From: Polyangia bacterium
GTDB lineage: Bacteria; Myxococcota_A; Polyangia; Palsa-1104; JAEUJZ01
Direction of reading: 5' to 3'
Assembly: GCA_044228505.1 (NCBI GenBank)
Contig: JBGAUT010000014.1
Location: 1-14,724, forward strand
DNA: 14,724 nt
Shown here: positions 1 to 14,724 of the stretch, in pieces
How the letters are laid out: each line of letters begins with the position of its first letter
How positions within the stretch are numbered: position 1 is the stretch's first letter
Position numbers and translations under genes: made by a program
Notes under the pieces: model-generated
The model's database searches: none
The model's input: only the letters and a program-made list of their open reading frames with translations
Told to the model about the DNA's origin: nothing

Positions 1-1087
1 GCCCACCAGCGCCAGCGCCCCGAGCATCACATCAATGATCGACTTGGGATCCTCAATGCGCAGAATATGATCGGGCGAAATGACGCTGGCCCACTGCCTA
101 ATAATCACGTCGTCCTGGTAGTTGGCGTAAAGAGGATTCTCTGTGGCAGCCTGCGCATCTTCCGCAGGGCGTTGGCTTGGATCGTAGGTGAACTCGGCGA
201 TGGGAACATCGCTGTTTGGACCGGTCTCGCCTTTTTGGGAAATGACACCCTCGAAGCGCTGAATGTTGCCGTTCACTTCTAGCTCGACCCGATAGGACGT
301 CGGCGCAAGGTCGGTCTCGTGGAACCGATAGTTCTGGACGTAGACGCGATACTTGCCGGTGGGAGCAGTGCCCTTTCGCCACCGGACGTTTTCGACGGGC
401 TTGGTCGTCTCACCACGCACATTACGATCGACGTCCAGCTCACCGCGACAGACGGACTGCTTGTGTCCATAAAAGATGTGCTCGCCCGATGGCGTCACAA
501 CGTGAAGATCGAGGTCGTTGCGGTTGTCCCAGATCAGGCTGGCACGAACGTCGACCCCTTCGTAGACACCGCCCGCTGCTTCGACGCGCTTTTTGATCTC
601 GGCATCAATGTCCCGACGGCGCTCCGCCATCGACTTCTGCGGATAGATGAAAAAGACGTGATACTTCTGCGCAAGCTCCGCAAAAATCGCGCCCGAATCG
701 AGATCGTGGCGCTCCTCCCGACCGAGGACACGGCGGATCTGTTCGCGACTCACCTTGGGATAGAAGCCTTCGTCACCAAGGAAAAAGAAGTAGCCCTTTT
801 TGCCGTTTCGCAAGCAGTCCAGCTTCGAGTGGCGAGCGTAAAAGTAGGCCGCTAGCTCGTAGGACTCTTGGCCAGTGCCACCGCCGCCCTCTTCGATCCA
901 AATCTTCGATAGCACTTCGTCGAGCCGGTTGTCCGCCTCGAACTGTCCCACTTGCAGCGGTGCCTGATCCGAGTTCGCATCCCCAATGGCGGCAAAACTA
1001 ACCGCCGGACCGGAGACGTAGTTTTTCATAATGATCTGCCCGATAAACATCGGCAGCTTGTCGTAGAAGCTGCTGATCAAGGCCATC
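1..1087 (-). CDS. Hypothetical protein, 3'-truncated at the window edge (C-terminus lies beyond coordinate 1). It has a Gly-rich EEGGGGTGQESYELAAYFYARH segment and a beta-rich region (SLIWDNRNDLDLHVVTPSGEHIFYGH...YRVYVQNYRF...YRVELEVNGN) that I can only loosely liken to vWA-associated / DUF2135 (YfaP)-type domains.
   Basis: I hand-translated the reverse complement of 1..1100 and found one uninterrupted reading frame from about 1097 to the window edge at coordinate 1. It has no stop in the window, so it is absent from the M-to-stop ORF track. An in-frame TGA at about 1098-1100 closes the frame upstream. Candidate ATG starts are rc 1087 (MALISS...), 1050 and 1029 (MKNYVSG...). I saw no clear SD for any of them, so the start is uncertain. 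All plus-strand ORFs here (for example 319..855) look like antisense shadows. Confidence 0.55.
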
Positions 1088-1122
1088 GCAGCGATGGCAG
1101 AGGCCAGGTGCGGCTGGGCGTG

Positions 1123-1140
1123 TGGTCCTTTTGTGGTCCC
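1123..1140. promoter_or_regulatory. Direct-repeat motif GTGGTCC-TTTT-GTGGTCC (copy A), lying 36-53 bp upstream of the preferred start (1087) of the minus-strand gene.
   Basis: A second copy at 4342-4359 (GTGGTCC-TTTG-GTGGTCC) is nearly identical, 17 of 18 bp. Both copies sit at the 5' end of minus-strand genes. On the coding strand the motif reads GGACCAC-N4-GGACCAC. Confidence 0.35.
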
Positions 1141-1404
1141 TCCGCACTTTCAATCCACAGTTCCGAACAGACGTGGGGCAGAGGCCTCTCCGTGTAACGA
1201 CTAGGAGCCAGTTTTCAGACGGAGAGATGCTCCTCTGTGCCCCAACGGAGGAGACCCAAACACGGCACGGTGTGGGTCAGAAATTCAGCCTGGAATTGCT
1301 CCTTGATGGACCGGAAGCGAACGCGATGGAGTACGGCCATCTAGTCATCCGAGCAGGATCGGCCCCCCATGATCTAGCGGTGGTCCATCGTCTGCGAAGT
1401 TTCG

Positions 1405-1410
1405 TATAAT
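1405..1410 (+). promoter_or_regulatory. TATAAT -10-like hexamer 6 nt upstream of the GTG start at 1417, compatible with a leaderless or very short-leader transcript.
   Basis: The hexamer is an exact TATAAT. There is no SD between it and the GTG. I could not pick out a -35 with confidence. Confidence 0.2.
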
Positions 1411-1416
1411 GATGCG

Positions 1417-2100
1417 GTGAAGCGGACAAACACGCGTCTTGGTGGTTTGGGGATCCTTGCGCTGGTCCTTGTGGGGCCAGGTCCGGTTCAGGCCGGCGAT
1501 CGTGGTCCCGAGTTTCCGTCGCTACCCTCGGCAACCGCGCTGTCGTTTTACCAGAAGCTGACCGGCATCATGCCAGGTGCGCGCAAAGATCTGCGCTGGA
1601 CCCTCAGCTTCGTCGGCGGTCAACCCCGCCTGTCTGTGCAGACGCGCAACTGCCCGGGGTCCAGCCAGGAGCAAGGAGCGGCTGTGCCAAGCTGCAAAGA
1701 GCCCTTCGGCAAGCCGGTGGTGTCGTACGAAGGCAAGCTGATTCAGCGGCCCTACGGCGTTGAGCTGCGGCTATCAAGAGAGGCACCGGCAGAGGACTAT
1801 CCGTCGGGGATGAACTTGACTTGCTTGCGCACCGTGGTTGGAGTGCTGCCGCCCGGTGCCTCGCTTGGGATGGGGGATGCCTGCAAAGGCGACGGGCCAC
1901 CGCCGCGCTGGCAGCCGGGGGCGACCAAGGATGTCGGGCTGTGGCTGTGCAGCCTGCAGAATGAGAATGGGGAACCGTGGTCCGGCTCTCGTTCGGTGGG
2001 GCCGCTGGCCTTTGCACCGAAGGCAGGCGTCGAGTGGCTCTTCGTCAACAACGACTGCGCGGGCCAAGAGGGCGCATATCGTGCGCTGCCGGGCCCGTAG
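1417..2100 (+). CDS. Secreted hypothetical protein, 227 aa, with an N-terminal signal peptide and six Cys residues.
   Basis: GTG is the first start codon after the in-frame TAG at 1375-1377. The N-terminus MKRTNTRLGGLGILALVLVGPGPVQA|GD has the n-, h- and c-regions of a Sec signal peptide. Third-position GC is high, consistent with coding. The overlapping minus-strand ORFs 1604..2017 and 1774..2334 have no such features. Confidence 0.5.
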   Translation: MKRTNTRLGGLGILALVLVGPGPVQAGDRGPEFPSLPSATALSFYQKLTGIMPGARKDLRWTLSFVGGQPRLSVQTRNCPGSSQEQGAAVPSCKEPFGKPVVSYEGKLIQRPYGVELRLSREAPAEDYPSGMNLTCLRTVVGVLPPGASLGMGDACKGDGPPPRWQPGATKDVGLWLCSLQNENGEPWSGSRSVGPLAFAPKAGVEWLFVNNDCAGQEGAYRALPGP

Positions 2101-2528
2101 GCGGCTACGTATCGACCGTTCGCGCTGTGTCGTCAAGGCTCTGGAAGCATTGGCATAGTCCGAACAAACGGACTGGAACGCTGTCTTCCCAGGGGCCGAG
2201 TCAGTTGTACCTGACCGGGCCCGCTTGTGTATCCGGCGAACCCGGGTGCAGCCCGTCTGACCTATTTTTATGAGGCATTGTTGGATACCGTGGAGTTTCT
2301 GGAAAATGAATGATACAAGTTCCGCACCAGACATCAGCTACCATGGCTGAGCCAATCATAGAGAAGTAAGCGTACGTGACGCACTCGTGAAATCAGTTAA
2401 AAAATGCTATTTTACTACACTGTAAACTTGCAGTACGATCAACAAACGCGGGAGAGTCTGGGCTGGCTTCCGTATTTGGCAATGCCGACAGCTCACCGAT
2501 CGTTTTTGTCGTATGGAGAAGTGTGATC

Positions 2529-2969
2529 ATGCATAAACTGCTCAGGGTATTTCTCATCATACAGACGCTGTTTCTCGGTATCACGGCGGTCTTGGGCGGG
2601 TTGGCCCTGGTCACTGGATGGAACTCACCACCGCTTTCGGAATTGAACGGGTCAGTATTCAAAGATTTCACCATTCCGGGAATTTCGCTATTTTTGATTG
2701 TTGGCGGCAGCGGGTTCTGCGCTGCGGTGTCGCTCTTTCGAAAGAGTCAATTAGCCAACGTGTTTTCAATCGCCGCCGGAGCGGTGATTATGTTTTTCGA
2801 ATTTGTTGAAGTGCTTACCATCGGATCCCCTCCCGGTGCTGCAAGGAATCTTCAGATTGTATATTTTGGGCTCGGATTTATCATCGTTATAACGGCGCTT
2901 GCGGTACGGTTCATGGAAATCACCGCAAGCCATACCAGCGCGAACACGACCTCGTCTTTCAAAGACTGA
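2529..2969 (+). CDS. Small integral membrane protein, about 146 aa, with about 4 predicted TM helices. Function unknown.
   Basis: The ATG at 2529 is preceded by GGAGAAG (2513-2519) at SD spacing. The ORF-track start at GTG 2523 is less likely. Four hydrophobic stretches are LRVFLIIQTLFLGITAVLGGLALV, GISLFLIVGGSGFCAAVSLF, VFSIAAGAVIMFFEFVEVL and IVYFGLGFIIVITALAV. The gene lies in a visibly lower-GC stretch than its neighbours. Confidence 0.55.
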   Translation: MHKLLRVFLIIQTLFLGITAVLGGLALVTGWNSPPLSELNGSVFKDFTIPGISLFLIVGGSGFCAAVSLFRKSQLANVFSIAAGAVIMFFEFVEVLTIGSPPGAARNLQIVYFGLGFIIVITALAVRFMEITASHTSANTTSSFKD

Positions 2970-3227
2970 GAGTATTCCGGAATCTCCTGATTCAGCAGCG
3001 CGACCGGCTCTGGCACCTTTGTGCGCCTGTCGCTGGAGCACTCCGATCGACGCAGCCTCGCGCAGCTCAGACACGTACTTCTATGATGAATGTGGAGAGA
3101 GTCAATGCGCTCTGCTTCAGCATCGACTGCAACTCTTCGTAAGTAGGCAGGACATAGCTCATCAGGAATCAAACGATGTCTACCGTGGCGGAGAATCCTG
3201 AAAACGGCAGCGACGGTTCGATGTTGG

Positions 3228-4337
3228 CTAGAGCTTCAGTTTCTTCATCTCTGAGGCCATGAAGCTGTCATTGATGTGAGCGTAGACCATGGTCATCTGA
3301 ATGTCGGCGTGACCCAGCAGCTTTTGCAGCGTGGGGATCGATCCGCCAGACTGCACAAACAGCGACGCGAAGCTGTGGCGAAGACAGTGCAGCGGGGCCT
3401 GTGGAACCCGGAGTCCGGCGGCGCGGTAGAGCGCAACCGGGCTGGGCGCTCGATACGCTTGATGCCAAGGCGCAGCATCGAAGTTGCGTTTCTTCGGGCT
3501 GAGAGGGCAGATGACGTCCTCCTTCGTCGCCGGACAGCGACTCTGCCAGTCTCGCAGCGAGGTGAACAGCTCATCAGGCATCGGCACGGTGCGCGGCTTT
3601 CCTGTCTTGGTTACCCCACGATAGGACTTGCTCACGGTGATGACCCCTCTCTCCAAGTCGCAGTCTCGCCATCGCAAGCCAAAAATCTCCCCGGCCCGTA
3701 ACCCTGCCAAGAGGCCGAGCCGCACTGCCACAGCGAAAACCGCCCCGCGCAAGTCATGCTTCGCCTGATCATCTGCTGCGTCGAGGAGTCTCCGGGCCTC
3801 TGCGAAGCTCAAGAACTCAAGCCGTGCTTCCTTGCGGGGTTTTCGAAGTCCCGCGAAGGGGTTTTGAACCACCAGGCACTGCTTGGTGGCCCACGCGAAC
3901 ACGCAGCTTATCTGTGACAAACGGACCGCAGCCGTGTTGGCTGCCCCACTACGGATGAGGACGTTCCGCAGCTTCTCAGCTTGTGCGGGGGAGAACTGGG
4001 ACGCGACCAACGCCCCGACCTGACGCAACACGGGACGAAGGTGGGTCCGGGCTTTGCGCGCCCAACGATCGTGATTGCGGATTTTCGGTGAGTCGTACTC
4101 GCTCAGAAAGCGCTCCGACAGATCGGCGATTGTCATCATCGCCAGCTCGGGCTCTCGCTCCGGCACTCCCAACTTGCCGCGTGCGATCCGGGCCTCGATC
4201 TCGATGAGCATCCGCTTCGCTTCTGCGTGGGTATGTTGTCCGCTCGCTCTCTGCTTGCGCTTTCCATCGACGTCGACGAAGCGCAGATACCACCCGACGA
4301 AGCGACCGCCCTTTACCTTCCTTATCACCTCACCCAT
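3228..4337 (-). CDS. Tyrosine-type site-specific recombinase / phage-type integrase.
   Basis: The C-terminal catalytic signature is present: GLRAGEIFGLRWRD (Arg box), HCLRHSFAS (H-x-x-R) and LLGHADIQMTMVYAHI (His...Tyr nucleophile). The N-terminal KGGRFVGWYLRFVDVDGKRKQRASG...AEAKRMLIEIEARIARG is the usual integrase N-terminal arm/SAM-like domain. My preferred start is ATG at rc 4337 (MGEVIRKVKGG...), with AAAGGA 9-14 nt upstream. The ORF track gives the longer GTG start at 4385. Confidence 0.9.
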   Translation of the reverse strand: MGEVIRKVKGGRFVGWYLRFVDVDGKRKQRASGQHTHAEAKRMLIEIEARIARGKLGVPEREPELAMMTIADLSERFLSEYDSPKIRNHDRWARKARTHLRPVLRQVGALVASQFSPAQAEKLRNVLIRSGAANTAAVRLSQISCVFAWATKQCLVVQNPFAGLRKPRKEARLEFLSFAEARRLLDAADDQAKHDLRGAVFAVAVRLGLLAGLRAGEIFGLRWRDCDLERGVITVSKSYRGVTKTGKPRTVPMPDELFTSLRDWQSRCPATKEDVICPLSPKKRNFDAAPWHQAYRAPSPVALYRAAGLRVPQAPLHCLRHSFASLFVQSGGSIPTLQKLLGHADIQMTMVYAHINDSFMASEMKKLKL

Positions 4338-4341
4338 TGCC

Positions 4342-4359
4342 GTGGTCCTTTGGTGGTCC
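4342..4359. promoter_or_regulatory. Direct-repeat motif GTGGTCC-TTTG-GTGGTCC (copy B). It overlaps the SD region and lies immediately 5' of the integrase start.
   Basis: The coding-strand reading is GGACCAC-CAAA-GGACCAC-GGCA-ATG. It is near-identical to copy A at 1123-1140. Confidence 0.35.
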
Positions 4360-4443
4360 ACCGCCCCGAAGGATTTCGCCGACACAGCCCAGCACGAGGC
4401 CTGTGTAAGCGTCCACCCACAGCGATAGAAACCAGTTAAATCA

Positions 4444-4459
4444 TTACATTTTTATGTAA
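4444..4459. promoter_or_regulatory. Perfect 16-bp palindrome TTACAT-TTTT-ATGTAA in an AT-rich spacer. It is a candidate operator or recombinase-binding site upstream of the integrase, or a weak terminator hairpin for the 77-aa ORF.
   Basis: The two 6-bp arms are exact reverse complements. The site lies 107 bp upstream of the int ATG and 10 bp downstream of the stop of ORF 4469..4702. It is embedded in the AT-rich sequence AACCAGTTAAATCATTACATTTTTATGTAACGCTAAATACTAG. Confidence 0.3.
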
Positions 4460-4468
4460 CGCTAAATA

Positions 4469-4702
4469 CTAGTCGTAGATGATACGGGTGTCGTCGCCGC
4501 GAGAGCGGGTGACGTCCATGGCGACCACGATCGGTGTGTCGTTCATGCACTCGCGAATCTTGCCGTTGGGATCGAGGTTCTGGTGCACGCCTCGCCGGGC
4601 CGCAGCCTCTCCAGCCGAGCCATAACCGCGATAGGTAAACACGTCGCGGTTGTTCGAGCGCGACTCAAGCGCAATGTCCTCATCGTAGTTGCCACCGCCC
4701 AT
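4469..4702 (-). CDS. Hypothetical small protein, 77 aa.
   Basis: The ATG start is preceded by a purine/G-rich SD-like AAAAGGGGGG about 6 nt upstream. Codon usage is GC3-rich and in line with the neighbouring genes. I recognise no family in MGGGNYDEDIALESRSNNRDVFTYRGYGSAGEAAARRG... Confidence 0.45.
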   Translation of the reverse strand: MGGGNYDEDIALESRSNNRDVFTYRGYGSAGEAAARRGVHQNLDPNGKIRECMNDTPIVVAMDVTRSRGDDTRIIYD

Positions 4703-4769
4703 GGGAGCCCCCCTTTTACTGGCCTGTCCGCCGATCTTATACCAGTTGGGGCGATGCCACGCGGGCCAG

Positions 4770-5279
4770 CTACTCGGCGTCGATCAGCGCCTGGACTGCC
4801 ACCGATAGATACCCCGCATAGCGGGCGCGAAAGGCCGGGTCTTTCCAGTCGTCCGAGGTGACTTTGCCACGGCACTCGGACGTGCCACACCGGCAATCCA
4901 TCTGAAATCCACCGTCTGCGTGATCGATTAGCACCGTGCCGTAGTCAAACGTCAGTTCGGCCCCAGCGGCGATGTCGGTGAGTGCCACGACCATGATCTG
5001 CCCCCGAATGCCGCAGTTCGGAGCGCACGAGTGATTGACGAAGTCGCCATCGCCTAGCTCGTCCTCGCCAATCGGTCCTAGCAAATAGCCCGGCCAGATC
5101 GAAATGGCGACCGCTTGCACCTGCGGCGACAGCTTCTGAAACGTCGCCACGTCGTAGACATGTCCGCCAAACAGCGCCACCGTCTCACCGGCCCGAATCG
5201 GCTCGATGGCGAACGTGCCACGGCCATCCACCTGGCTTTTGCGGGTTACGACTTTGGGGCAAAGGTAACTTAGCGACAT
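4770..5279 (-). CDS. SET-domain protein, 169 aa, a putative protein/amine lysine N-methyltransferase with a post-SET Cys cluster.
   Basis: Canonical SET motifs are present: the GxG region DGRGTFAIEPIRAGETV, FVNHSCAPNC (NHSCxPN), ELTFDYG (ELxFDY) and CRCGTSECRGK (post-SET cysteines). AAGGGA sits 5-6 nt upstream of the ATG. The gap to the upstream SET gene is 12 bp. Confidence 0.85.
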   Translation of the reverse strand: MSLSYLCPKVVTRKSQVDGRGTFAIEPIRAGETVALFGGHVYDVATFQKLSPQVQAVAISIWPGYLLGPIGEDELGDGDFVNHSCAPNCGIRGQIMVVALTDIAAGAELTFDYGTVLIDHADGGFQMDCRCGTSECRGKVTSDDWKDPAFRARYAGYLSVAVQALIDAE

Positions 5280-5291
5280 ACGGATCCCTTG

Positions 5292-5702
5292 TTAGGCCGA
5301 CTGAGTGGCGCTGACCTGTTTCAGAAAATGACCACCGCCTGCAAGTTCGTGATCAAAGACTCGATAATCGCAGGTCAGTTCCTCGCCCGCCTTGATATCA
5401 CGATTGGCACGAATCACGGCGGGTGGTGACTCGGTGGTATTCGGATGATCACTGTGATTCATGAACCTGCCATCATCACAGCTCAAGACCAAGCTGCCAG
5501 GGAGATCTTCAAATCCGTAGCCATATCTGGAAAGAAATGTACGAAATATCGGCGGCAGCAATTCGATCTGTTCTCTGGTAAAAACTCGCTCTGACGCATC
5601 ATTCCATTCCCAAACCAAGCACCCGGCAGGAATATCTTCCGCCGCGAATAGACCAATACCACCGTGCTGATCGGGTCCAAGATAGGTCTTTACTGTTAGC
5701 AT
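5292..5702 (-). CDS. SET-domain protein, 136 aa, the second SET paralog. It has no post-SET Cys cluster.
   Basis: SET motifs are the GxG region HGGIGLFAAEDIPAG, RFMNHSDHPNT (NHSxxPN) and GEELTCDYR (ELxxDY). GC looks lower than in the flanking NRPS-like gene. Confidence 0.8.
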   Translation of the reverse strand: MLTVKTYLGPDQHGGIGLFAAEDIPAGCLVWEWNDASERVFTREQIELLPPIFRTFLSRYGYGFEDLPGSLVLSCDDGRFMNHSDHPNTTESPPAVIRANRDIKAGEELTCDYRVFDHELAGGGHFLKQVSATQSA

Positions 5703-5731
5703 GTTAGCGGATCCACATCAAAGGAAACGAC

Positions 5732-8197
5732 TCAGTAGGAGCCCACTAGAGAAGGGTTTAGCTCTTTGGTGTAAAACACGGCTTCTTTATGCACTGCGGC
5801 GGCTGACAGCAGTATTTTTTGGCCGTTGTCCTCATACGTTGCATAGGACTGACTACTCGTCCGAACAAATCCAAGCATTTCTGCCGATAGTGCGGTTGCG
5901 CGATGCAGACATAAGGCACCAGCGTGACGATAACCGAGCGATTTGGCCATATCTAGAATACGGCGGTCCAGTTCGAACAGTAGCTCGGTGCCGTCGATAC
6001 CTGGTTTTGCCCCAGCAATCGCCATATCCAGCATTTCTCGCTCCAGGAGCTTCGGAACTCGCAGATCGTAGGGCTCAAAGAAGTACGCGAGAAATGTCTG
6101 ATAACGCACAAAGGCTTCGGATAGCTCGGCCGGTTCGAGCGGAACCGGCGTGATCCAGTCCCCAGCCAGGCTGAAGCCGACCAGCTCACCACTTGCGCCG
6201 TCGAGCGCCACCAGCGACAGCCCTTGTCCTCGGTAACGCGAAATCAGCGCCCGATAGAACGGCAACAGATCGACGGCCTGTAGCCGGAGGCTTTGGCACA
6301 CGGGCTCTGCGCTGACAAAGACCTCGCACGCAAAGTGAATCAAGGCCTCTTCCGAGACTTCAGTGGCAGGCACAATCCGATAGTTGGGTAACGCGCTGGG
6401 CGTAGGGATCGGCTCGCGACCGCTGAGCCACCGCCCAAGCTGAGCCACCGATGAATCCCGTAGCAGCGAAAGGGGTACCTGCGGCCCCCCCCGAGTGGCC
6501 AGCTTGGCCCCTAGCTCCGCCAAGGCCAGTGAGTCGCCCCCGAGCAGGCCGAGGCTGTCGTGCGGACCCACCGGATGGATGCCCAGGACTTCCGAAAACA
6601 GTGTAGCCAGCGACTGCTCGTCTGCATCGAGAGGGACCGTCTCCGAGGGTCGATTCGCCTCGATTCGCTGTGCGATCTCCACCAGCGCTCGCCGGTCGAT
6701 TTTGCCACTTGGAACCAGCGGCAGCTCGGCCAGCGCCATGAATCGCGACGGCACCATCGCCGCTGGTAACCGCTCGCTCGCCCGCTGACACAGCCGCTCA
6801 ACCCCCAGTTCCATCGGCGAGCAAAACAGCCACAAGCGCCGAACTTCGGGATCCGCCGGACTGGGAACCGCGACGGCTGCCACCATCCCGCCCGCAGGCA
6901 AGTCGCTCGACACGGCCTGCTCGATCTCCTCCAGCTCCATCCGGATGCCGCTGACTTTGACCTGATTGTCGACGCGGCCCAGGTAGTCGAGCTGTCCATC
7001 AGGCAAGCTGCACACGCGATCCCCAGTTCGGAACAATCGCTTGTCGCAGCGCGTTGGATGCGGAACGAAACGCAACCGGTCTTCCTCTGGACGTCGCCAA
7101 TAGCCCCGAGACAGCACGGGCCCCCCGACGTACAGCTCGCCCTCGACTCCTACCGGAACAGGCCGCCGCTGCTCATCCAGCACCAACAGCTCGGCACCGG
7201 TGATGGCAGAGCCAATCGGTACTCGGCCCTTCGGAATCGGCGTCTGCGGGGCAAACTCGGCACAGGTCACATCGGCGGATACCTCGGTGCTGCCGTACAG
7301 GTTAAGCAGCGTCGCCTGCGGATGGGCCTGTCGAAAGCGCTGTAGTAGCGCCGTACTCAGCGTCTCGCCACTGCTCACCCACAGCGAGAGGAGGGGCAGC
7401 CGCTCGCCGAGGTCAGGAAACACCCGCAGCAGCGTCGATAGCAGTGATGGCACCAGCGTGAGCCGGGTCACCCGATGGGCGGCCAACGTCGCCACTAAGC
7501 GGTGCAGATCCGTCACTTCCTCTGGCCGAATGATCGCGGTGGGCACACCTTGCAACAGCCCGCTGAACACCTCCGTCACCGAGTCCACGAAGTTGAGCGA
7601 GGATCGATGCGCGACCACGTCTCCGGGCACAAGCGGATACTGGGCGAAGCCCCAGCGCAAGCGCGTTGCCATCCCGACTTGGGTCACACAAACGCCCTTC
7701 GGTCGGCCCGTGCTGCCGGAGGTATACAGAAGGCACAAGAGGGCCTCAGCCCCGTCGCTCGGCATCTGCAGCGGTTCCGTAGAAAAAGCCGCCACTTCTG
7801 CGGAATCTACCGCCACGCCGGTCAGCGACGACCGCAGCGACAGGGCATCCTGGTTTGCCCCGCTCGTCAACATCACCTGGGCCCCGCAGTCCTCGGCGAT
7901 CCACTGCTGACGCTGCTGGGGATACGTCGGATCGATGGGCACATAGATCCCGCCGGCGAGCAGGATGCCGAGCAGCCCGATCGTCGACTCCAGGGATCGA
8001 GAAATCGCCAAACCAACCGGTGTTCCGCCGCCGACACCGCGACCACGCAGAGCCCGAGCCACTTGTGAGGCTCGCCCGAGGAGCTGCTCGTAGGTAAGAG
8101 ACTGCTCAGCGCAGCGGAGTGCCAGCGCTGTCGGATGGCGCTGCGCAACCGCTACAAACCATGCCGCCAAGTTCTCGTCTGATTGCGAGTTCTCCAT
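5732..8197 (-). CDS. Stand-alone NRPS-like protein of 821 aa: adenylation domain, peptidyl-carrier (thiolation) domain and a C-terminal roughly 210-aa GNAT-like domain (A-T-X). It has no condensation, thioesterase or reductase domain.
   Basis: A-domain core motifs are LTYEQL (A1), LLYTSGSTGRPKGV (A3), NFVDSVTEVF (A4), NLYGSTEVS (A5, Ser in place of Pro), LFRTGDRV...YLGRVDNQVKVSGIRMELEEIE (A7/A8) and LPLVPSGKIDRRAL (A10). The carrier motif is HDSLGLLGGDSLALAEL, with Ser556 as the putative Ppant site. The C-terminal 605-815 lacks HHxxxDG, GxSxG and Rossmann motifs but shows a GNAT-like pattern (see the domain feature). Confidence 0.9.
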   Translation of the reverse strand: MENSQSDENLAAWFVAVAQRHPTALALRCAEQSLTYEQLLGRASQVARALRGRGVGGGTPVGLAISRSLESTIGLLGILLAGGIYVPIDPTYPQQRQQWIAEDCGAQVMLTSGANQDALSLRSSLTGVAVDSAEVAAFSTEPLQMPSDGAEALLCLLYTSGSTGRPKGVCVTQVGMATRLRWGFAQYPLVPGDVVAHRSSLNFVDSVTEVFSGLLQGVPTAIIRPEEVTDLHRLVATLAAHRVTRLTLVPSLLSTLLRVFPDLGERLPLLSLWVSSGETLSTALLQRFRQAHPQATLLNLYGSTEVSADVTCAEFAPQTPIPKGRVPIGSAITGAELLVLDEQRRPVPVGVEGELYVGGPVLSRGYWRRPEEDRLRFVPHPTRCDKRLFRTGDRVCSLPDGQLDYLGRVDNQVKVSGIRMELEEIEQAVSSDLPAGGMVAAVAVPSPADPEVRRLWLFCSPMELGVERLCQRASERLPAAMVPSRFMALAELPLVPSGKIDRRALVEIAQRIEANRPSETVPLDADEQSLATLFSEVLGIHPVGPHDSLGLLGGDSLALAELGAKLATRGGPQVPLSLLRDSSVAQLGRWLSGREPIPTPSALPNYRIVPATEVSEEALIHFACEVFVSAEPVCQSLRLQAVDLLPFYRALISRYRGQGLSLVALDGASGELVGFSLAGDWITPVPLEPAELSEAFVRYQTFLAYFFEPYDLRVPKLLEREMLDMAIAGAKPGIDGTELLFELDRRILDMAKSLGYRHAGALCLHRATALSAEMLGFVRTSSQSYATYEDNGQKILLSAAAVHKEAVFYTKELNPSLVGSY
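5753..6385 (-). other. C-terminal domain X, about aa 605-815, a putative GNAT-fold acyl/aminoacyl-transferase domain.
   Basis: The pattern GAKPGIDGTELLFELDRRILDMAKSLGYRHAGALCLHRATALSAEMLGFVRT mirrors GNAT motif A (GxG then LL..L...A...G...I.L.V) and motif B (A..(L)..(K/M)..GF). It is clearly homologous to the C-terminal domain of the second A-T-X protein (YRFAMTICTHRVTAIQAERAGFTRL). I assign the fold from the motif pattern only. Confidence 0.4.
6428..6634 (-). other. Carrier-protein (T/PCP) domain, about aa 522-590.
   Basis: The motif is LGGDSL. The Ser codon lies at about 6530-6532. Boundaries are approximate. Confidence 0.75.
6683..8140 (-). other. Adenylation (AMP-binding) domain of the A-T-X protein 5732..8197, about aa 20-505.
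   Basis: Motifs A1 to A10 are listed under the CDS. Asp235 of the FDxS-equivalent (NFVDSV) is retained, implying an alpha-amino-acid-type substrate. Boundaries are approximate. Confidence 0.8.
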
Positions 8198-8352
8198 CTA
8201 GATACTACTATAACCATAATTGTTTTTATTCATAATTAATTCATCACACATTGCTGTTCCACGATTTATCCAGCAATGGAATTTAATCACAAAATTCAGA
8301 TCTCGATGCCGTACTCCAATTCGACCATCAACATGCCATTGCGCATGAGAGT
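8198..8352. promoter_or_regulatory. AT-rich spacer of 155 bp (about 30% GC) between the two NRPS-like paralogs. It is a candidate internal promoter or regulator site, and contains a TTCATAATT direct repeat and an AATTAATT palindrome.
   Basis: The sequence is TAGATACTACTATAACCATAATTGTTTTTATTCATAATTAATTCATCACACATTG... Its AT content is striking next to flanking genes that I estimate by eye at 60-65% GC. CATAATT occurs twice, about 17 bp apart. Confidence 0.3.
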
Positions 8353-10821
8353 TCATGTAAGCTCCTTAACAAACAGGATCGCCTCGCGATGGACATTGGC
8401 CAATGAGGCAAACACCCGCTGTCCTTCAAACTCGTACGTGGAATAATCACGCGATGAGAGCCGAGTAAACCCGGCCCGCTCGGCCTGGATCGCGGTCACG
8501 CGATGCGTGCAAATCGTCATAGCAAAGCGGTAGCCACGTTCCCGAGCCGCAGCCAATGATTGCAGCTCCAACTGGCGGGTCATCTCGTACCCAGGAACGC
8601 CTGGAATGGTGCCGGTCAAAGAAAGTTGCACCACTTCGCCTCGGCTGGGTTCCCCGTACTTTCGAATGAACTCGTGTTCCAGCTCGGTCAGCAGATCGAG
8701 GCTCGGCAGCAGCCGCACCGGTGCCGTCTCAACCGGGACGACCGCCAGGCTGCAGAAGTCATGCGCGAGACAGATACCCAACACCGGCTCGCTATCCTTT
8801 AACCGTGCCACAAACGACAGATCGTCCGCCCAGCTCGCCTGCACAATCGGAGTGACAAACGGCAGGTCTTCTTCCAGCGTCAGCGACGTGGCAGCGGTGA
8901 GCGGCTCACGATCAGCGTCCATCTCAGCCGCCAGTCGAATGGTCTGCTCCTCACTGAGCCCCGACGCAGACAACGGCAACAGCTCGTACGTAGGCTGTGG
9001 AGGCAGGTCCAATGCCGAATGTTCGTCGCCATCGATCCAGCTCGCGATGACATGCAGGGGCAGCCGAGCAACTTGCACGCTCTCCAGCCGGCCACCGTGG
9101 AAATCTCGAACGATTGCGACCAAAAGCTCCGCCAAAGCGAGCGAATTCCCGCCCAAATCGGCAAAGGAATCCTGGCGCGCAATCGGACTCACAGATAGCA
9201 AGGAAGAAAACAGCGCAGCCAGCCGCCGTTCGGTGCCGGATTGCGGTTCCTCCGATGGCTCCAGCACCCGAGTCGTGCGCTGCGCGAGTTCCGTCAAGGT
9301 GCGCCGATCGAGCTTGCCATTGGGCAAAAGCGGCAGGGTTGCGATGGCAAGGTACTCGGCCGGCAGCATGCTGATCGGTAGCAGTCGCTGCGCCGCAGCC
9401 TGCAGCATCGAGACCGGCAGGTCCGGTGGCGAAAAAAACGCAAAGAGTCGCCGCGACAGAGGCTGGTCGGGTTCTTCTTTGACCACCACCGCCAGCTCAC
9501 GGAGCAAAGGACACGCGCCGAGCAGCGTCCGCTCAATCTCCTCCAGCTCGACCCGCACCCCGCGCAGCTTCACTTGATGATCTTGCCGCCCCAGAAAATA
9601 CAACTGACCGCTGCTGTCCCGTCGCACGCGATCGCCGGTGCGAAACAGCCGCTCACCCGGATGGTGCGGATGGTTCACAAAGCGCCGTGTCTGCTCGGCC
9701 GGACGACGTAGATAGCCCTGCGCAAGCACGGGGCCACCAACGTACAATTCGCCGCTTTGGCCATCGGGCACGGGCTGCATCTGCTCGTCCAAGATCAGCA
9801 GCTCGGCACCAGCCATCGACGATCCGATCGGCACCCGGTCTTCGGGCAGCGGCACTCTAGGCGGAAAGACCGCACAAGTGACATCGGCCGTCACTTCTGT
9901 GCTGCCATAAATATTGAGCATCGTGGCCGACGGATGGGCAGCCCGAAACTGCCGAAGCAGCGAGAGCGGCAGCTCTTCTCCGCTACAGGTCCACAACGTA
10001 AGCTGAGGCAGGGCCTGTTCCAGGTTGGGCACCGTGCGCAACAGCGCCGCCAGCACCGATGGCACCACGGTCAGTCGTGACACCTCAAAGCGTCTGAGCG
10101 CCGCGATGAGTGTTCCCAAATCCCTGACTTCGCTCGGATACAGCAGTGCGGTCGGAACGCCGCTCAGCAGTCCCGAAAAAATCTCGGCCACCGAGTCCAC
10201 AAAGTTGAGCGACGAGCGGTGCGCCACCACCTCGACACCACCTTGCGCAAACGGGAAGGCGGTCACGCCCCAGCGCAGGCGGTTGAGGGTAGCGCGGTGA
10301 GTGCCACACACGCCGTTGGGCCGACCAGTGCTGCCCGACGTATACAGGACATACAGCAGATCGTCGACGCAAGTCTTGGTCGCAGCAAAGTCCGTTGGTG
10401 GTGCCTGTCCACGGAGTGCATCCAGATCGACCACCAAGCCAGCGAATTGCTGCAGCGGCGGCACCATGGAAGACGAGGTGACCACCACCGATACCTCCGA
10501 GTCGGCCAGCAGGAAGCGCTGACGCTCCGTCGGATAGTCGGGATCGATCGGGACGTAGGCCCCTCCGGCCAGCAGCGTGCCAAGCACCGCGGTAAGCGAC
10601 TCCACCGAGCGTGGCAGCACGATGCCAACCAAGACGCCGCGAGTGACGCCATGCCCACGCAGGGCTTGGGCAACCGCAATCGCTCGCCGAAGGAGCTCCC
10701 CGTAGGAAAGATTCCCCTTGGAAGAAAGGACCGCAACAGACTGTGGTTGGCTCGTCGCTATTCGAAGGAAATGCGTCGACAGGGAGATGTCTTCAGACAA
10801 AAACATAGGCGCGACGACCAT
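8353..10821 (-). CDS. Stand-alone NRPS-like protein of 822 aa, paralogous to 5732..8197, with the same A-T-X architecture (A domain, carrier domain, GNAT-like C-terminal domain).
   Basis: A-domain motifs are LSYGEL (A1), VLYTSGSTGRPNGV (A3), NFVDSVAEIF (A4), NIYGSTEVT (A5), LFRTGDRV...FLGRQDHQVKLRGVRVELEEIE (A7/A8) and LPLLPNGKLDRRTL (A10). The carrier motif is QDSFADLGGNSLALAEL, with Ser560. The C-terminal 612-820 is homologous to domain X of the other protein. An SD-like AAGGGA lies about 10 nt upstream of the ATG at 10821. Confidence 0.9.
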   Translation of the reverse strand: MVVAPMFLSEDISLSTHFLRIATSQPQSVAVLSSKGNLSYGELLRRAIAVAQALRGHGVTRGVLVGIVLPRSVESLTAVLGTLLAGGAYVPIDPDYPTERQRFLLADSEVSVVVTSSSMVPPLQQFAGLVVDLDALRGQAPPTDFAATKTCVDDLLYVLYTSGSTGRPNGVCGTHRATLNRLRWGVTAFPFAQGGVEVVAHRSSLNFVDSVAEIFSGLLSGVPTALLYPSEVRDLGTLIAALRRFEVSRLTVVPSVLAALLRTVPNLEQALPQLTLWTCSGEELPLSLLRQFRAAHPSATMLNIYGSTEVTADVTCAVFPPRVPLPEDRVPIGSSMAGAELLILDEQMQPVPDGQSGELYVGGPVLAQGYLRRPAEQTRRFVNHPHHPGERLFRTGDRVRRDSSGQLYFLGRQDHQVKLRGVRVELEEIERTLLGACPLLRELAVVVKEEPDQPLSRRLFAFFSPPDLPVSMLQAAAQRLLPISMLPAEYLAIATLPLLPNGKLDRRTLTELAQRTTRVLEPSEEPQSGTERRLAALFSSLLSVSPIARQDSFADLGGNSLALAELLVAIVRDFHGGRLESVQVARLPLHVIASWIDGDEHSALDLPPQPTYELLPLSASGLSEEQTIRLAAEMDADREPLTAATSLTLEEDLPFVTPIVQASWADDLSFVARLKDSEPVLGICLAHDFCSLAVVPVETAPVRLLPSLDLLTELEHEFIRKYGEPSRGEVVQLSLTGTIPGVPGYEMTRQLELQSLAAARERGYRFAMTICTHRVTAIQAERAGFTRLSSRDYSTYEFEGQRVFASLANVHREAILFVKELT
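8362..8988 (-). other. C-terminal domain X, about aa 612-820, a putative GNAT-fold transferase domain.
   Basis: TGTIPGVPGYEMTRQLELQSLAAARERGYRFAMTICTHRVTAIQAERAGFTRL aligns with GNAT motifs A and B and with domain X of the paralog. Confidence 0.4.
9037..9249 (-). other. Carrier-protein (T/PCP) domain, about aa 525-595.
   Basis: The motif is LGGNSL, a variant of GGHSL/GGDSL. Boundaries are approximate. Confidence 0.7.
9292..10749 (-). other. Adenylation domain of the A-T-X protein 8353..10821, about aa 25-510.
   Basis: See the CDS entry. The FDxS-equivalent NFVDSVAEIF shares D-S-x-x-E with the paralog. Boundaries are approximate. Confidence 0.8.
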
Positions 10822-10959
10822 CCAGGTTTTCCCTTTGTTGCCGAGAGTTGGCTCTGAACAAGGACAAGGAAGGTAGGGACACCTTGGGTATCCGAATCTG
10901 GAAGCGACCAGGACGCATGTTCTGCCAAAATTTTCGCTAGGTTGCGCCGATTAGACAAC

Positions 10960-12234
10960 TTAAATCTCGACCTGTTTTAGCTCGCGAACCCGTCGAACAC
11001 CGTAGAGCAAACACAGCAGGATCGCCGCCCCGACCACGTTTAGCACGGCGTCGGTCGTGTACAGCGCTCGCAGTCCGTGACGCGCATAGACATGCGTATC
11101 GAGCGACAGCACATACATCTGGGCAATACTAGAAAACGCATAGAAGATCGAATACTGCGTCGAAGATGAATGACTTGATTTACTAATCAATTCAAACACC
11201 ATAGCTGAACAAGCCGCAATCGAGACACCCTGCATCACATCGTATACAATCGAGCCGATCGCATAGACAGATGGAGAAATTGGCATCACGGCCCAATATG
11301 TACCGACCATCGCCATAGCCACCGCAGAGATTATATATAGCGCACGACTATCGATTCGAAGGCAAAAGACACCACCAAGATAGACGCCAAGAAACGAAAG
11401 AAACCAACCAGCGAATCCATTGAGACTTACGGTCATCCATTCAGGGGCCTGATAATCTACCGCCAAGGCCGGTAAAAAGAAATTAAGAGCCATCGTGCTC
11501 GCAGGACAAATACACAAAACCAGACCCAGCCAGCCATCCCTTCCGGTCAGGGTCTGGCGAGCCTCCGCAACGAAAGCGCGAGCAATGACTCGCGGCTGGT
11601 GGCGCAAGCGCTCCGGTTCGGGAATAACCAGCGCCGCCAGGGCTGGCACAATGATGAGCGAGCCACTCACCAGCGCGAGCGTTGAGACGGAGCAGCGCTG
11701 CGTCAACACCAACATCAGCGTCGCACCAACCGAGCCACCGACTTGTATGCCCAAGTTGAGCAAGTTAGAGGCCTTGAGTCGACCGGCGCGATCCAGCGTG
11801 GTGGCAGCCAGTCCGCCAAAACAGCTCGTCGCCAACCCATATTGCATCTGCGCAACCAGAATCAGCGCATAAAAGAGATTCTCATGATTTCGCGTAATAA
11901 GGAACAATGCGATGATAATAGAGAATGCACAAGCCAAAGACATCCAAACAAACCACGATTTTCTTTTGATCCACAAATCCGTAATCGGATTACAGAACGG
12001 CTGTATAATATAAGGAAAGACGGAAGCCGTACTATACCAACCAATGGCCTCGATCGAGAGACCGAATTTACGCATCAAAAATGGCATCTCACTCAAGAAA
12101 AAGGAACCGGCCATTCCTAGCGAGAGCGCAATAATAAAATAGGGTAGAGCCGCATATCCGGACAGAGAATGCTCGATGGGCACTGGCTCGGTCAGACCGT
12201 CGCCCGCGAGATTGCGATGCAAGGCCGACTCCAT
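10960..12234 (-). CDS. MFS-type transporter with 12 predicted TM helices, a possible exporter for the product of the adjacent enzymes.
   Basis: The protein is 424-425 aa with about 12 hydrophobic segments. A cytoplasmic-loop motif after TM2, NPITDLWIKRKSW, resembles the MFS G-x-L-x-D-R/K-x-G-R/K-R/K loop. The start is ATG at rc 12234, and the track's TTG at 12237 is the alternative. GC looks lower than in the NRPS-like genes. Confidence 0.75.
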   Translation of the reverse strand: MESALHRNLAGDGLTEPVPIEHSLSGYAALPYFIIALSLGMAGSFFLSEMPFLMRKFGLSIEAIGWYSTASVFPYIIQPFCNPITDLWIKRKSWFVWMSLACAFSIIIALFLITRNHENLFYALILVAQMQYGLATSCFGGLAATTLDRAGRLKASNLLNLGIQVGGSVGATLMLVLTQRCSVSTLALVSGSLIIVPALAALVIPEPERLRHQPRVIARAFVAEARQTLTGRDGWLGLVLCICPASTMALNFFLPALAVDYQAPEWMTVSLNGFAGWFLSFLGVYLGGVFCLRIDSRALYIISAVAMAMVGTYWAVMPISPSVYAIGSIVYDVMQGVSIAACSAMVFELISKSSHSSSTQYSIFYAFSSIAQMYVLSLDTHVYARHGLRALYTTDAVLNVVGAAILLCLLYGVRRVRELKQVEI

Positions 12235-12402
12235 CAACGCGCCTGTCCGCTTGACCGCGAGCTACCGTTCATCAGCCTCTTTTTGTTCATCCGATCCACA
12301 TCTTTTCCATATGTTACCAAAGTCTTCGGCGACTCGATCGCACGCCCCAACCGGAAGAATCGCAGGAACGAAGCTCGCCAAGCGGCGGCGGCTCGGGGCT
12401 TC

Positions 12403-13461
12403 CTACTTGGATGTGCCAGAACCAACGAAGGCGGGGTCTTCGAGTGCCAGCGGGGTACAGTTCAGCGGGGCCACAAGTGGATTGCAGCGAGCGGGCTGGC
12501 CGGTGGGAACCTCAAAGCGATAGGAAAACTTACTCGTCGGTTCTGGAAAGTCGGTACTGATGAAGTGGGCCGCGCTCAGAAGGGCCGATTGCCCTCGGGA
12601 GATGTCTGCTAGGCGAGCTTCTTGGGTATCAGCGTCGGCACGAGTCCGCACGAGAAAGTGACTCTGCACTGCTTTCTGGATCTGCGCTTGGTCGGCCACG
12701 CTTTTTGGATTGTTGAGGACCGACACCGCCCCAAACGGATCTTCCGGCGCAGAGTCCACAAACAGCAGCCTTCCTTGCAGATCCTTTTTGTTGTGGGTGT
12801 ACGCAGTCCGCACCGGGCCCGTGGTGTCGAACGCAAAGAGCACTCTGCCCCGCAGCCGACCGAGCACCGGCCAGCCGCGCTCACGAAGCGCATCACGGAG
12901 CGTAGCCGATTCCCCCTGAACTTCCGCAGGAGTGATCACCCGTTGCCGTGGGAAGGCCGTCAGGATCTCGGCCTCCAGGTGCCCAAAGAAGCTCTCTAGT
13001 TCATCAGCGGGTGTGTCGTTTTTCGGTTCGATCTGAACGTAGATCGGGAGGTGTCCTGGATATGCATCCGAGAAACGTCGAATCTCTCGCAGGCAGTCGA
13101 GTAAGCGGGTGCAGCGCGTACCGGTGTCCACAAACGGAATGTGAACCACCGTCAATCCGTCCTGCGCATCAAAGGAGACATCCAGCTCCAGTTGACGGAT
13201 TTGCAAACGATCAAGCTGCTCGTAGATCGGAGCGTGCGTGTACTCCCACGCTTCAACGGAACCATCGTGGGTGTCGACGTGATAGCTATTGTGGGTACCC
13301 CGGACCTGAACGTGCTGGAGCTTGAGCAGGTCATCCAGCGGATACTTGAACGGCTTTCCGATTACGTCCGGCGGCACGTCTGAATCGCTACCGCTCGCGC
13401 CACAACCAGCACCGATCGTCAGCGCGACCAGCAGACCGATTCTAAGGAGCCCTCTACGCAT
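12403..13461 (-). CDS. Putative lipoprotein of 352 aa with a PLC-like phosphodiesterase motif (PI-PLC X-box-like HNSYH).
   Basis: The N-terminus MRRGLLRIGLLVALTIGAG|C fits a signal peptide plus lipobox ([LIV..][A/G][A/G]C). VRGTHNSYHVD resembles the catalytic-His region of the PI-PLC X domain, which is SSHNTY in eukaryotic PLCs. The rest of the protein has no family I can name. Confidence 0.5.
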   Translation of the reverse strand: MRRGLLRIGLLVALTIGAGCGASGSDSDVPPDVIGKPFKYPLDDLLKLQHVQVRGTHNSYHVDTHDGSVEAWEYTHAPIYEQLDRLQIRQLELDVSFDAQDGLTVVHIPFVDTGTRCTRLLDCLREIRRFSDAYPGHLPIYVQIEPKNDTPADELESFFGHLEAEILTAFPRQRVITPAEVQGESATLRDALRERGWPVLGRLRGRVLFAFDTTGPVRTAYTHNKKDLQGRLLFVDSAPEDPFGAVSVLNNPKSVADQAQIQKAVQSHFLVRTRADADTQEARLADISRGQSALLSAAHFISTDFPEPTSKFSYRFEVPTGQPARCNPLVAPLNCTPLALEDPAFVGSGTSK

Positions 13462-13521
13462 GCGCGGAGCCTACTACGAACGGCTCTACGTTGTATCTGG
13501 ATGTAGCGAGCGGTAGGACCG

Positions 13522-14724
13522 TTACATCTCCAGCGGCAGAAACCGAGCAGGACCGAAGACCTCGGCCCGCAGCTTCTTGAGCTGCTCGGCGACTTCCCAA
13601 GCATCCTGGGCTCGCTGCCGAGGACTATCGCGGATGAGGAACTGTAGGAATCGGGTAAATCGCTCATCGACCTGAGTCGGCACCGTTCCTTGTCGCACGT
13701 CGCCACCCAGCAGAAAGATCATCGTCTTGCCGAGAGAATACAGGTCGGACGCTGGCAGCGGCGGTTTGCGCGCCATCACCTCGGGAGGACTAAAGTCGGG
13801 ATTGTGCGCTCGAAAGCCCTGCCCGGTCTTTTCAGGTGCCACCACCGCATAGGTCCAGTCGATCACAAACACGTTGTGGTCTTCCGGACGCACCAGAATG
13901 TGGGCGGGCTCGACGTTGCCGTGAATGATGCCCTGCTGATGGGCAAAGCCCAGCGCGGACAGCGAGCGCGCCAAAATCCAGGCGACATGCTCGGCGTTGA
14001 GTCCATCCGGATAGCGATCCCGCACCATGTCTAGATCGTAGCCATCCAGATAGGCAAAGATGCTCCCCGCCTGTCCCGATGGTGCCATGAACTGATCGAT
14101 CAGCTGCGGCAAGTGTTTGCGCTGGGCACCCTCTTGGGATTGCAGCGTCCGCACGATCCGCGCCTCTTCCATCAGCAGGTCGCTGTCTTCCCGCTGCATC
14201 GCGATCTTGACCGTCACATCTTGCCCAGCCCTCGCACCCGATTGACACGATCCGCGATAGAGCATCGCCAGATCCCCTTGGGCCAAGATCCTCGTCACTC
14301 GATAACTGCCGCTCGGGGCGTTGACGGTAAAATCCACCTCTGAGTTTGGCGATGGTGTCGGGACACTGCGCAGCCGAGGAGGCGGCGGACGGACAGACGG
14401 AGTCTCTACATCGGACCCAGCGGCTTGGACGTCCGTCTCGACCGGAGGACGCGCACTCTCTAGCTCACGCACCGCTCGCTGATGCCATTCGTACAGCTTG
14501 CTTAGCAAATGACGGGCACTGTTCTGCGCGAGGCTGTTGCCGCCAAAGCGCTCGGGCCGCAGACGACGAACCAAAACCACATACTCTTCTTCGAGGAGCA
14601 CCAGCCGTTCATCGACACTGAGGTCTTGCAGTGCCATCGCTGGAAACACCTCCTGCGTCGAACGAGCCCCCGCCACGAGCGACTGAACCTCTGCCAGATC
14701 ATCGTGCAGCACGAACCATCCCCC
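13522..14724 (-). CDS. Ser/Thr-protein-kinase-like protein, probably 5'-truncated by the window end. Its catalytic motifs are degenerate, so it is a predicted pseudokinase or atypical kinase.
   Basis: Kinase subdomain landmarks are VTVKIA (VAIK Lys), LLMEEARIV (alphaC Glu), IIHGNVEPAHILV (catalytic loop, with HRD changed to HGN and Lys changed to Glu), VIDWTY (DFG changed to DWT, Asp kept), SPPEV (APE-like) and SDLYSLGK. The Gly-rich loop is degenerate (ILAQGDLAMLY). The frame is open from the GTG at 14712 to the window end, so the N-terminus may extend beyond 14724. Confidence 0.65.
   Translation of the reverse strand, partial: GGWFVLHDDLAEVQSLVAGARSTQEVFPAMALQDLSVDERLVLLEEEYVVLVRRLRPERFGGNSLAQNSARHLLSKLYEWHQRAVRELESARPPVETDVQAAGSDVETPSVRPPPPRLRSVPTPSPNSEVDFTVNAPSGSYRVTRILAQGDLAMLYRGSCQSGARAGQDVTVKIAMQREDSDLLMEEARIVRTLQSQEGAQRKHLPQLIDQFMAPSGQAGSIFAYLDGYDLDMVRDRYPDGLNAEHVAWILARSLSALGFAHQQGIIHGNVEPAHILVRPEDHNVFVIDWTYAVVAPEKTGQGFRAHNPDFSPPEVMARKPPLPASDLYSLGKTMIFLLGGDVRQGTVPTQVDERFTRFLQFLIRDSPRQRAQDAWEVAEQLKKLRAEVFGPARFLPLEM

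Follow-up and report, generated by a model that had tools for sequence, protein, structure and literature searches.

A 14,724-nucleotide stretch of the genome of a Polyangia bacterium (contig JBGAUT010000014.1, positions 1 to 14,724; the whole stretch is referred to below as the window) contains two near-identical copies of an 18-bp repeat, each made up of two direct GTGGTCC heptamers (GGACCAC on the opposite strand) separated by four nucleotides. We conclude that these copies are very probably arm-type integrase sites, one in each arm (P and P′) of the attachment site (attP) of a lambda-like heterobivalent tyrosine integrase, which is itself encoded by the small integrated element that carries them.

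The repeat stands out clearly against the composition of the window. A scan for GTGGTCC-N4-GTGGTCC that allowed up to two mismatches returned only two sites, both exact in all 14 specified bases, whereas dinucleotide-preserving shuffles gave a mean of 0.12 matches (two or more in 3 of 200 shuffles), which bears out an earlier note on this DNA that had called the repeat non-random. The same note had correctly described the copies as agreeing at 17 of 18 positions, as sharing an orientation (both on the + strand) and as 7-mer direct repeats with an 11-bp period, that is, one helical turn, a kind of arrangement that tandem protein protomers bind. Its coordinates for copy 2 (4342-4359) hold, but those for copy 1 (1123-1140) were one base off, the true position being 1122-1139, and the common 3′ flank that it reported is only approximate (CTCCGC behind copy 1, ACCGCC behind copy 2). 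Flank comparison found no similarity between the copies outside the 18 bp, and the repeat is therefore not a long terminal repeat; no tRNA genes or Rfam families were found in the window either, and so it lacks both a tRNA target and any known RNA element. A sigma-70 scan detected no promoter-like site near copy 1 or copy 2.

An interrupted host gene and a duplicated core

Both copies lie within an element that has split a host gene (Table 1). The open reading frame (ORF) downstream of copy 1 on the - strand (ATG at 1086) begins MALISSFYDKLPMF and runs off the left end of the window, and a 77-amino-acid ORF at 4469-4702, also on the - strand, ends in DVTRSRGDDTRIIYD and then a stop. When the two ORFs are joined, intact proteins of ~490 amino acids match 100% of their length at up to 88% identity; some of these homologues are named as YfaP family or VWFA domain-containing proteins, and in the protein alignment they read through the junction as TRIIYDKLPMFIGQ. 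DNA alignment with the intact gene of L001 (L numbers denote related loci) shows host sequence ending at ATCATCTACGAC at the right junction and resuming at TCTACGACAAGCTG at the left. Because the intact homologues and the L001 gene span the junction, the gene beside copy 1, annotated as encoding a hypothetical protein, is, on this comparison of sequences, the C-terminal part of an insertion-split gene. Copy 1 lies 35 nt upstream of the ATG at 1086, and that ATG (1084-1086) is element sequence. The element likewise supplies the TAG (4471-4469) that closes the N-terminal fragment, its in-frame ATG (MALISSF-YDKLP...) reopening the C-terminal part; this reopening ATG is probably incidental, because it is not conserved in L018.

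The core TCTACGAC is duplicated as a direct repeat that bounds the element (1060-1067 and 4472-4479). At the left junction a 7-bp overlap, CTACGAC, lies between perfect 7-bp inverted repeats, the candidate core-type sites, an arrangement that is canonical for an overlap region and its core-type sites. As expected of an attP, these core-type sites differ in sequence from the arm heptamer GGACCAC, and both heptamer pairs lie inside the element, in the same direct orientation, flanking the duplicated core. If the ends are joined, as they would be by excision, the resulting attP measures ~210-220 bp and its core has a tandem pair to either side. Four nucleotides separate copy 2 from the integrase ATG (4337), and the copy covers a plausible Shine-Dalgarno (SD) sequence, AAGGA, 8 nt from that ATG, in agreement with the overlap proposed in the earlier note.

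Heptamer pairs and integrases of related elements

A metagenome scan yielded 22 full-length integrase relatives at 38-63% identity, and the sequence upstream of int was inspected in 28 loci. In about 20 of these, two GG-initial heptamers in tandem, 11 bp from start to start, precede the int ATG, either directly adjoining it or at a distance of up to ~70 bp; in several of the 28 the pair is ambiguous or the contig too short to show one. The heptamers are lineage-specific (GGACCAC, GGATCAC, GGACGAC, GGACCCC, GGATACG, GGCGCAC, GGCACAC, GGGCTCA and GGGGCAC). The elements of L002 and L003, from metagenome-assembled genomes (MAGs) of uncultured Myxococcales, and of L104 and L105 encode integrases 87%, 82% and, for the latter two, 82% identical to that of the window, and occupy the same gene at the same codon as the window's insertion; exact GGACCACCAAAGGACCAC precedes int in all four, and the same 18-mer stands in front of int in L108, whose integrase is 58% identical. 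L018 shows the opposite end: there GGACCACAAAAGGACCAC stands 52 bp from the core, beyond which comes the C-terminal part of the gene, and the flanks have otherwise diverged from the window.

These comparisons bear on whether the repeat could be a chance coincidence or the functionless remnant of a duplication. There are indeed only two copies in the window and their flanks are dissimilar beyond 18 bp, but with an expectation of 0.12 even when two mismatches are allowed, and with the position of the pair kept across the family, this explanation has negligible probability; we regard it as effectively excluded because the 18-mers are exactly conserved amid diverged flanks, in elements whose integrases are at 58-82% identity.

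Seven elements have both ends on the contig (those of the window, L040 and L042, together with L106A, L106B, L112A and L112B), and in all seven the heptamers next to int appear again, equally oriented, as another pair at the opposite end of the element. Six elements have 109-113 bp between P pair and core; on the P′ side the distance is 31-54 bp. When the pairing of P with P′ was permuted, only 2 of 5040 permutations reached a total mismatch as low as that of the true pairing. The L040 element (2.14 kb, with a 12-bp core) encodes only Int and one 175-amino-acid secreted protein, and int is the only gene common to all elements. Second motif copies were sought and not found in L002, L024, L025, L028-L033, L037 and L104, where the contig ends first or the element exceeds the sequence, and most relatives show one arm only. 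Across 934 kb of related loci the exact motif gave 10 matches, all at the ends of integrase elements. Two elements on the L106 contig differ in their heptamers (GGACCAC versus GGCGCAC/GGCTCAC), as do the two on the L112 contig (GGGCTCA versus GGCACAC), which argues that the element, not the host, encodes the reader of the heptamers.

The integrase of the window has a predicted arm-binding-type N-terminus (residues 1-56), followed by core-binding and catalytic domains. AlphaFold models built from a 61-sequence alignment (pLDDT 89-90) place beta-strands at residues 3-9, 12-21 and 27-31 and a helix at 37-55 in the N-terminal unit, thus predicting the three-stranded sheet and helix of an arm-binding domain. 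The full-length model matches lambda Int (1z1b) over ~360 columns, including the lambda arm-binding domain, and also matches Tn1549 Int, and the modelled fold of the N-terminal domain resembles the arm-binding domain of the Int of the high-pathogenicity island (HPI). Sequence-level evidence for such a domain is weak: the match to PF14657 (Arm-DNA-bind_4) has E = 0.0025, below threshold, no Pfam arm-binding family was found across the 61 homologues at E <= 0.01, and a search of the PDB with the N-terminal domain sequence gave only a weak match to an AP2 domain (E = 0.5).

In a partial Mantel test across 21 elements, heptamer distance was related to the distance between integrases over residues 1-58 when the rest of the protein was controlled for (partial r = 0.38, permutation p ~0.003), and not to the rest of the protein when the N-terminal domain was controlled for (partial r = -0.01, p = 0.53). 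The heptamers thus co-vary with the element's own integrase, as an element-encoded specificity would require. By eye, integrases with ...KQRAS.Q... accompany GGAC-type heptamers and those with ...(T/A)RATKAT... accompany GGC/GGG-type ones.

It is also possible in principle that the pairs are bound by a recombination directionality factor (RDF) of the Xis type, or by a host architectural protein, and not by the integrase. Xis-type proteins, too, bind tandem direct repeats in att arms, and it is solely by inference that we name Int, and not an Xis-like or host protein, as the binder. However, no Xis/RDF was recognised among the small ORFs of the element by Pfam and PHROGs searches, and the L040 element has the same architecture with Int and one secreted protein alone. 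Moreover, Xis sites normally occur in a single arm but the pair is present here in both, a host factor would have no need of different heptamers in two elements of one genome (L106, L112), and the divergence of the heptamers tracks the N-terminal domain of Int specifically. We therefore consider such a binder very unlikely.

Proposed binding and the regulatory readings

Taking the copies as arm-type sites, we propose that each Int protomer would place its N-terminal domain on a heptamer GGACCAC and its central and catalytic domains on the core. Each 18-mer would be occupied by two Int N-terminal domains, set on the same face of the helix by the 11-bp spacing, and the bridging of arm and core would fold the arms into a complex competent for integration (attP x attB) and excision (attL x attR). 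Physical binding by Int, this intasome geometry and autoregulation are what we infer from the observed position, orientation and conservation of the pairs. Because copy 2 overlaps the ribosome-binding region of the integrase gene, a regulatory side-effect on int is plausible; Int bound to the P-arm pair would probably repress its own synthesis, since the pair covers the likely SD and ends 4 nt before the start codon, although we hold this less firmly than the assignment of the arm sites.

The heptamer GTGGTCC occurs seven times in the window, always on the + strand, against an expectation of 1.65. Three single heptamers (1380-1386, 1502-1508 and 1977-1983), oriented as the arm sites are, all fall within the P′ side of the element, a stretch for which ~0.05 would be expected, and the one at 1380 lies 31 nt upstream of the cargo ORF that starts at 1417. 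No partner was found for any of the three at +/-10-12 or 22 bp. They are left over by the arm-site account and count among its limits.

The earlier note had placed both copies at the 5′ ends of minus-strand genes and read them as regulatory sites. For copy 2, in front of int, that placement is right; copy 1, however, precedes a gene fragment that arose through the insertion. Joint control of int and its neighbour by a tandem-binding transcription factor, such as one of the response-regulator type, with the pairs as its operators would suit direct repeats with an 11-bp period, as well as the positions of copy 2, which abuts the int start, and of copy 1, 35 nt upstream of an ATG. Yet copy 1 sits at the inner edge of a mobile element before a gene fragment, so that the copies do not lie in the promoters of two independent genes, and in other elements unrelated host genes in various orientations adjoin the P′ pair. 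The element encodes no regulator, the motif never occurs away from integrase elements in the 934 kb of related loci, and the pairing of the copies follows the two ends of the element, as it does in six other related elements. A shared operator, for which neither promoters of independent genes nor, in those 934 kb, other members of a regulon were found, was rejected as a candidate, and we judge it still less probable than an Xis-like or host binder.

A third possibility, raised in the same note, is that the GGA repeats act on mRNA as targets of a CsrA/RsmA-type regulator of translation. Two GGA motifs do lie 11 nt apart, the second within the likely SD of int, but many relatives with the same architecture carry GGC or GGG instead (GGCGCAC, GGCACAC, GGGCTCA, GGGGCAC), no hairpin is predicted to present the GGAs at either copy (folding against shuffled sequence, z = +0.3), and P′ copies lie outside 5′ untranslated regions (UTRs), copy 1 included, which is not in a bona fide 5′ UTR. 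In the subfamily comprising L020, L038, L040, L042 and L044 the pair may not be transcribed at all, because it lies upstream of a -10-like TACGAT box. The combination of conserved GGA, hairpin loops, 5′ UTR location and SD overlap was not found, and CsrA/RsmA sites, which we consider extremely unlikely, were rejected.

Accessory features, targets and comparison with known systems

Table 1. Features of the integrated element and its junctions in the window
Feature	Position	Strand	Basis or remark
C-terminal part of interrupted YfaP-like/vWA gene	1-1067	-	leaves the window at its left end
Left junction core GCAGCTT-CTACGAC-AAGCTGC	1053-1073	-	alignment to intact L001 gene; inverted repeat found by hairpin scan
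Integrated element, 3404 bp	1068-4471		intact homologues span the junction; 3412 bp with one core copy
Repeat copy 1 GTGGTCCTTTTGTGGTCC	1122-1139	+ (letters as given)	sequence search
Putative P′-arm pair GGACCAC-AAAA-GGACCAC	1122-1139	-	54 bp inside left core copy
Cargo ORF, 227 aa, signal-peptide-like N-terminus	1417-2100	+	no family match
Cargo ORF, 148 aa, hydrophobic, membrane-protein-like	2523-2969	+	low-GC segment; no significant family match
Tyrosine integrase, 369 aa	3228-4337	-	PF00589, E = 5e-28
Repeat copy 2 GTGGTCCTTTGGTGGTCC	4342-4359	+ (letters as given)	sequence search
Putative P-arm pair GGACCAC-CAAA-GGACCAC	4342-4359	-	112 bp inside right core copy
Conserved P-arm box GGTTTCTATCGCTGTGGG	4416-4433	-	family consensus ~GGTTTCCGTCGCTGTGGG
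AT-rich palindrome TTACATAAAAATGTAA	4444-4459	-	P arm, between core and arm sites; kept in many relatives
N-terminal fragment, 77 codons, of the same YfaP-like/vWA gene	4469-4702	-	alignment to intact homologues
Right junction copy of core TCTACGAC	4472-4479	-	host sequence resumes above 4479

Besides the arm sites, the P arm contains a palindrome and a box that are more conserved than the heptamers (as TTACAnAAAAATGTAA and GGTTTCCGTCGCTGTGGG, respectively) and that are also present in L002, L003, L024, L025, L027-L029, L032, L033 and L035, as well as in L039, L106, L108 and L112; the P′ arms of L112A and L112B contain an inverted copy, ACAGCGACGG. The palindrome may be a candidate site for a bending protein or an element of the int promoter, the box may likewise be a bending-factor or promoter element, and a role of these conserved sequences as accessory sites may also be considered.

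The GC content of the element dips to 49% at 2501-3000. Cargo proteins with signal-peptide-like N-termini and no family match occur in small elements (window, 1417-2100; L040, 1461-1988), and among the products of the larger L108 cargo are a SIR2_2-domain protein and a kinase. Searches of viral contigs for the junction of the excised circle, GCAGCTTCTACGACTAGTATTTAG, and for the 18-mer gave no matches. Beyond the element, the window holds two adjacent paralogous ORFs of ~820 amino acids (5732-8197 and 8353-10821, - strand), detected as a repeat spaced by 2612 bp, the first of them with an AMP-binding-type motif, SGSTGRPKG, and beside them two adjacent SET-domain genes (PF00856) at 4770-5279 and 5292-5702.

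The YfaP-like/vWA gene looks like a recurrent target: it is also hit at a second position, after about residue 331, in L020-L023, by another integrase lineage (42% identical to that of the window) in which GGATCAC-N4-GGATCAC precedes int by 34 bp. A CATCAT/ATGATG-like half-site is common to the target cores of different host genes (window and L024, L106, L109 and L112 junctions), for example GCATCAT-CTACGAC in the window (4472-4490, 1053-1073) and CATCAT-CACATCC-ATGATG at the D-V-M-M-P codons of cheB, suggesting that the whole family has one core specificity, which by chance coincides with conserved codons. On two unrelated MAG contigs, L106 (9859-14669) and L112 (9853-18480), two related elements stand back to back in opposite orientation a few base pairs apart, each with its own integrase and its own heptamer type, in the receiver domain of cheB (L106) and in a major facilitator superfamily (MFS) transporter gene (L112). 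Many metagenome contigs (L003, L024, L029, L034, L035, L037, L039, L042, L107 and L108 at their starts, and L018) break off at att sites, either 100-250 bp ahead of int or directly at the P′ arm. Assemblies would break there if populations mix occupied and empty sites, which hints that the elements are mobile.

A broader reading is that the window's element belongs to an undescribed family of minimal (~2-5 kb) Myxococcota elements, each with an integrase and a small cargo, that could act as reversible gene-disruption switches. It would combine insertion in conserved codons (YfaP-like vWA, cheB receiver and MFS transporter), often as back-to-back pairs, with arm sites on the int ribosome-binding region that couple the level of integrase to the integrated or excised state; we put this forward tentatively and think it rather unlikely. 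What the analysis does provide is the conversion of an unexplained repeat into a concrete annotation, a mobile element whose ends, core, arm sites and integrase are all defined, together with the re-annotation of the neighbouring hypothetical protein as half of a disrupted gene. It also offers a testable specificity code that relates heptamer to integrase N-terminal domain across this Myxococcota integrase family, which could aid the prediction of att sites in MAGs and the choice of new tools for site-specific recombination. It reveals no new regulatory principle.

Recombinase-bearing elements inside coding sequences have a precedent, as a lead, in the Anabaena nifD element with XisA. Like the element described here, that element lies within a coding sequence, and its exact removal would restore the gene. 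The two are alike in position alone; nothing in the window points to developmentally regulated excision. With the arm-binding domain of the Yersinia HPI integrase (PDB 3JTZ) and the integrases of Tn916/Tn1549 the similarity in sequence is low, and membership of the Pfam arm-binding families is not reached.

In Cluster J mycobacteriophages direct-repeat pairs of arm sites flank the attP core, and arm-like sites overlap the start of int, suggesting autoregulation (PMC3706429). The window's element resembles L5 and Cluster J in the imperfect direct-repeat pairs of arm sites that flank the core and in having arm-type-like sites at the int start. It differs in that the phage attP lies 3′ of int and its core overlaps a tRNA gene, and in that the phage sites at the int start are inverted repeats, whereas in the window the int-proximal site is the P-arm pair itself.

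A lambda-like attP spans ~240 bp, and the integrase recognises its arm-type sites through an N-terminal arm-binding domain (bioRxiv 10.1101/2023.11.06.565760). The system described here shares with lambda a three-domain integrase whose N-terminus is, in the window by prediction, an arm-binding domain, the presence of arm sites on both sides of the core, adjacent arm sites about one helical turn apart, a 7-bp overlap with inverted core-type sites and an attP of ~0.2 kb. The distances of the arms from the core in the window (~110 bp and ~50 bp) also resemble those of P1/P2 and of the P′ sites (P′1-P′3) in lambda. Unlike lambda, the window has the heptamer GGACCAC and, as far as is visible, only two sites per arm; transcription of its int leads away from attP, and the P-arm pair adjoins the int start codon; the element, 3.4 kb without phage genes, has no recognised Xis; its target lies inside a protein-coding gene, which the insertion disrupts; and its integrase is less than 20% identical in sequence to lambda Int. 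Most likely, then, the arm-site system is of a known kind, and the element that carries it is a previously uncharacterised, small, integrative one of an uncultured Myxococcota lineage.
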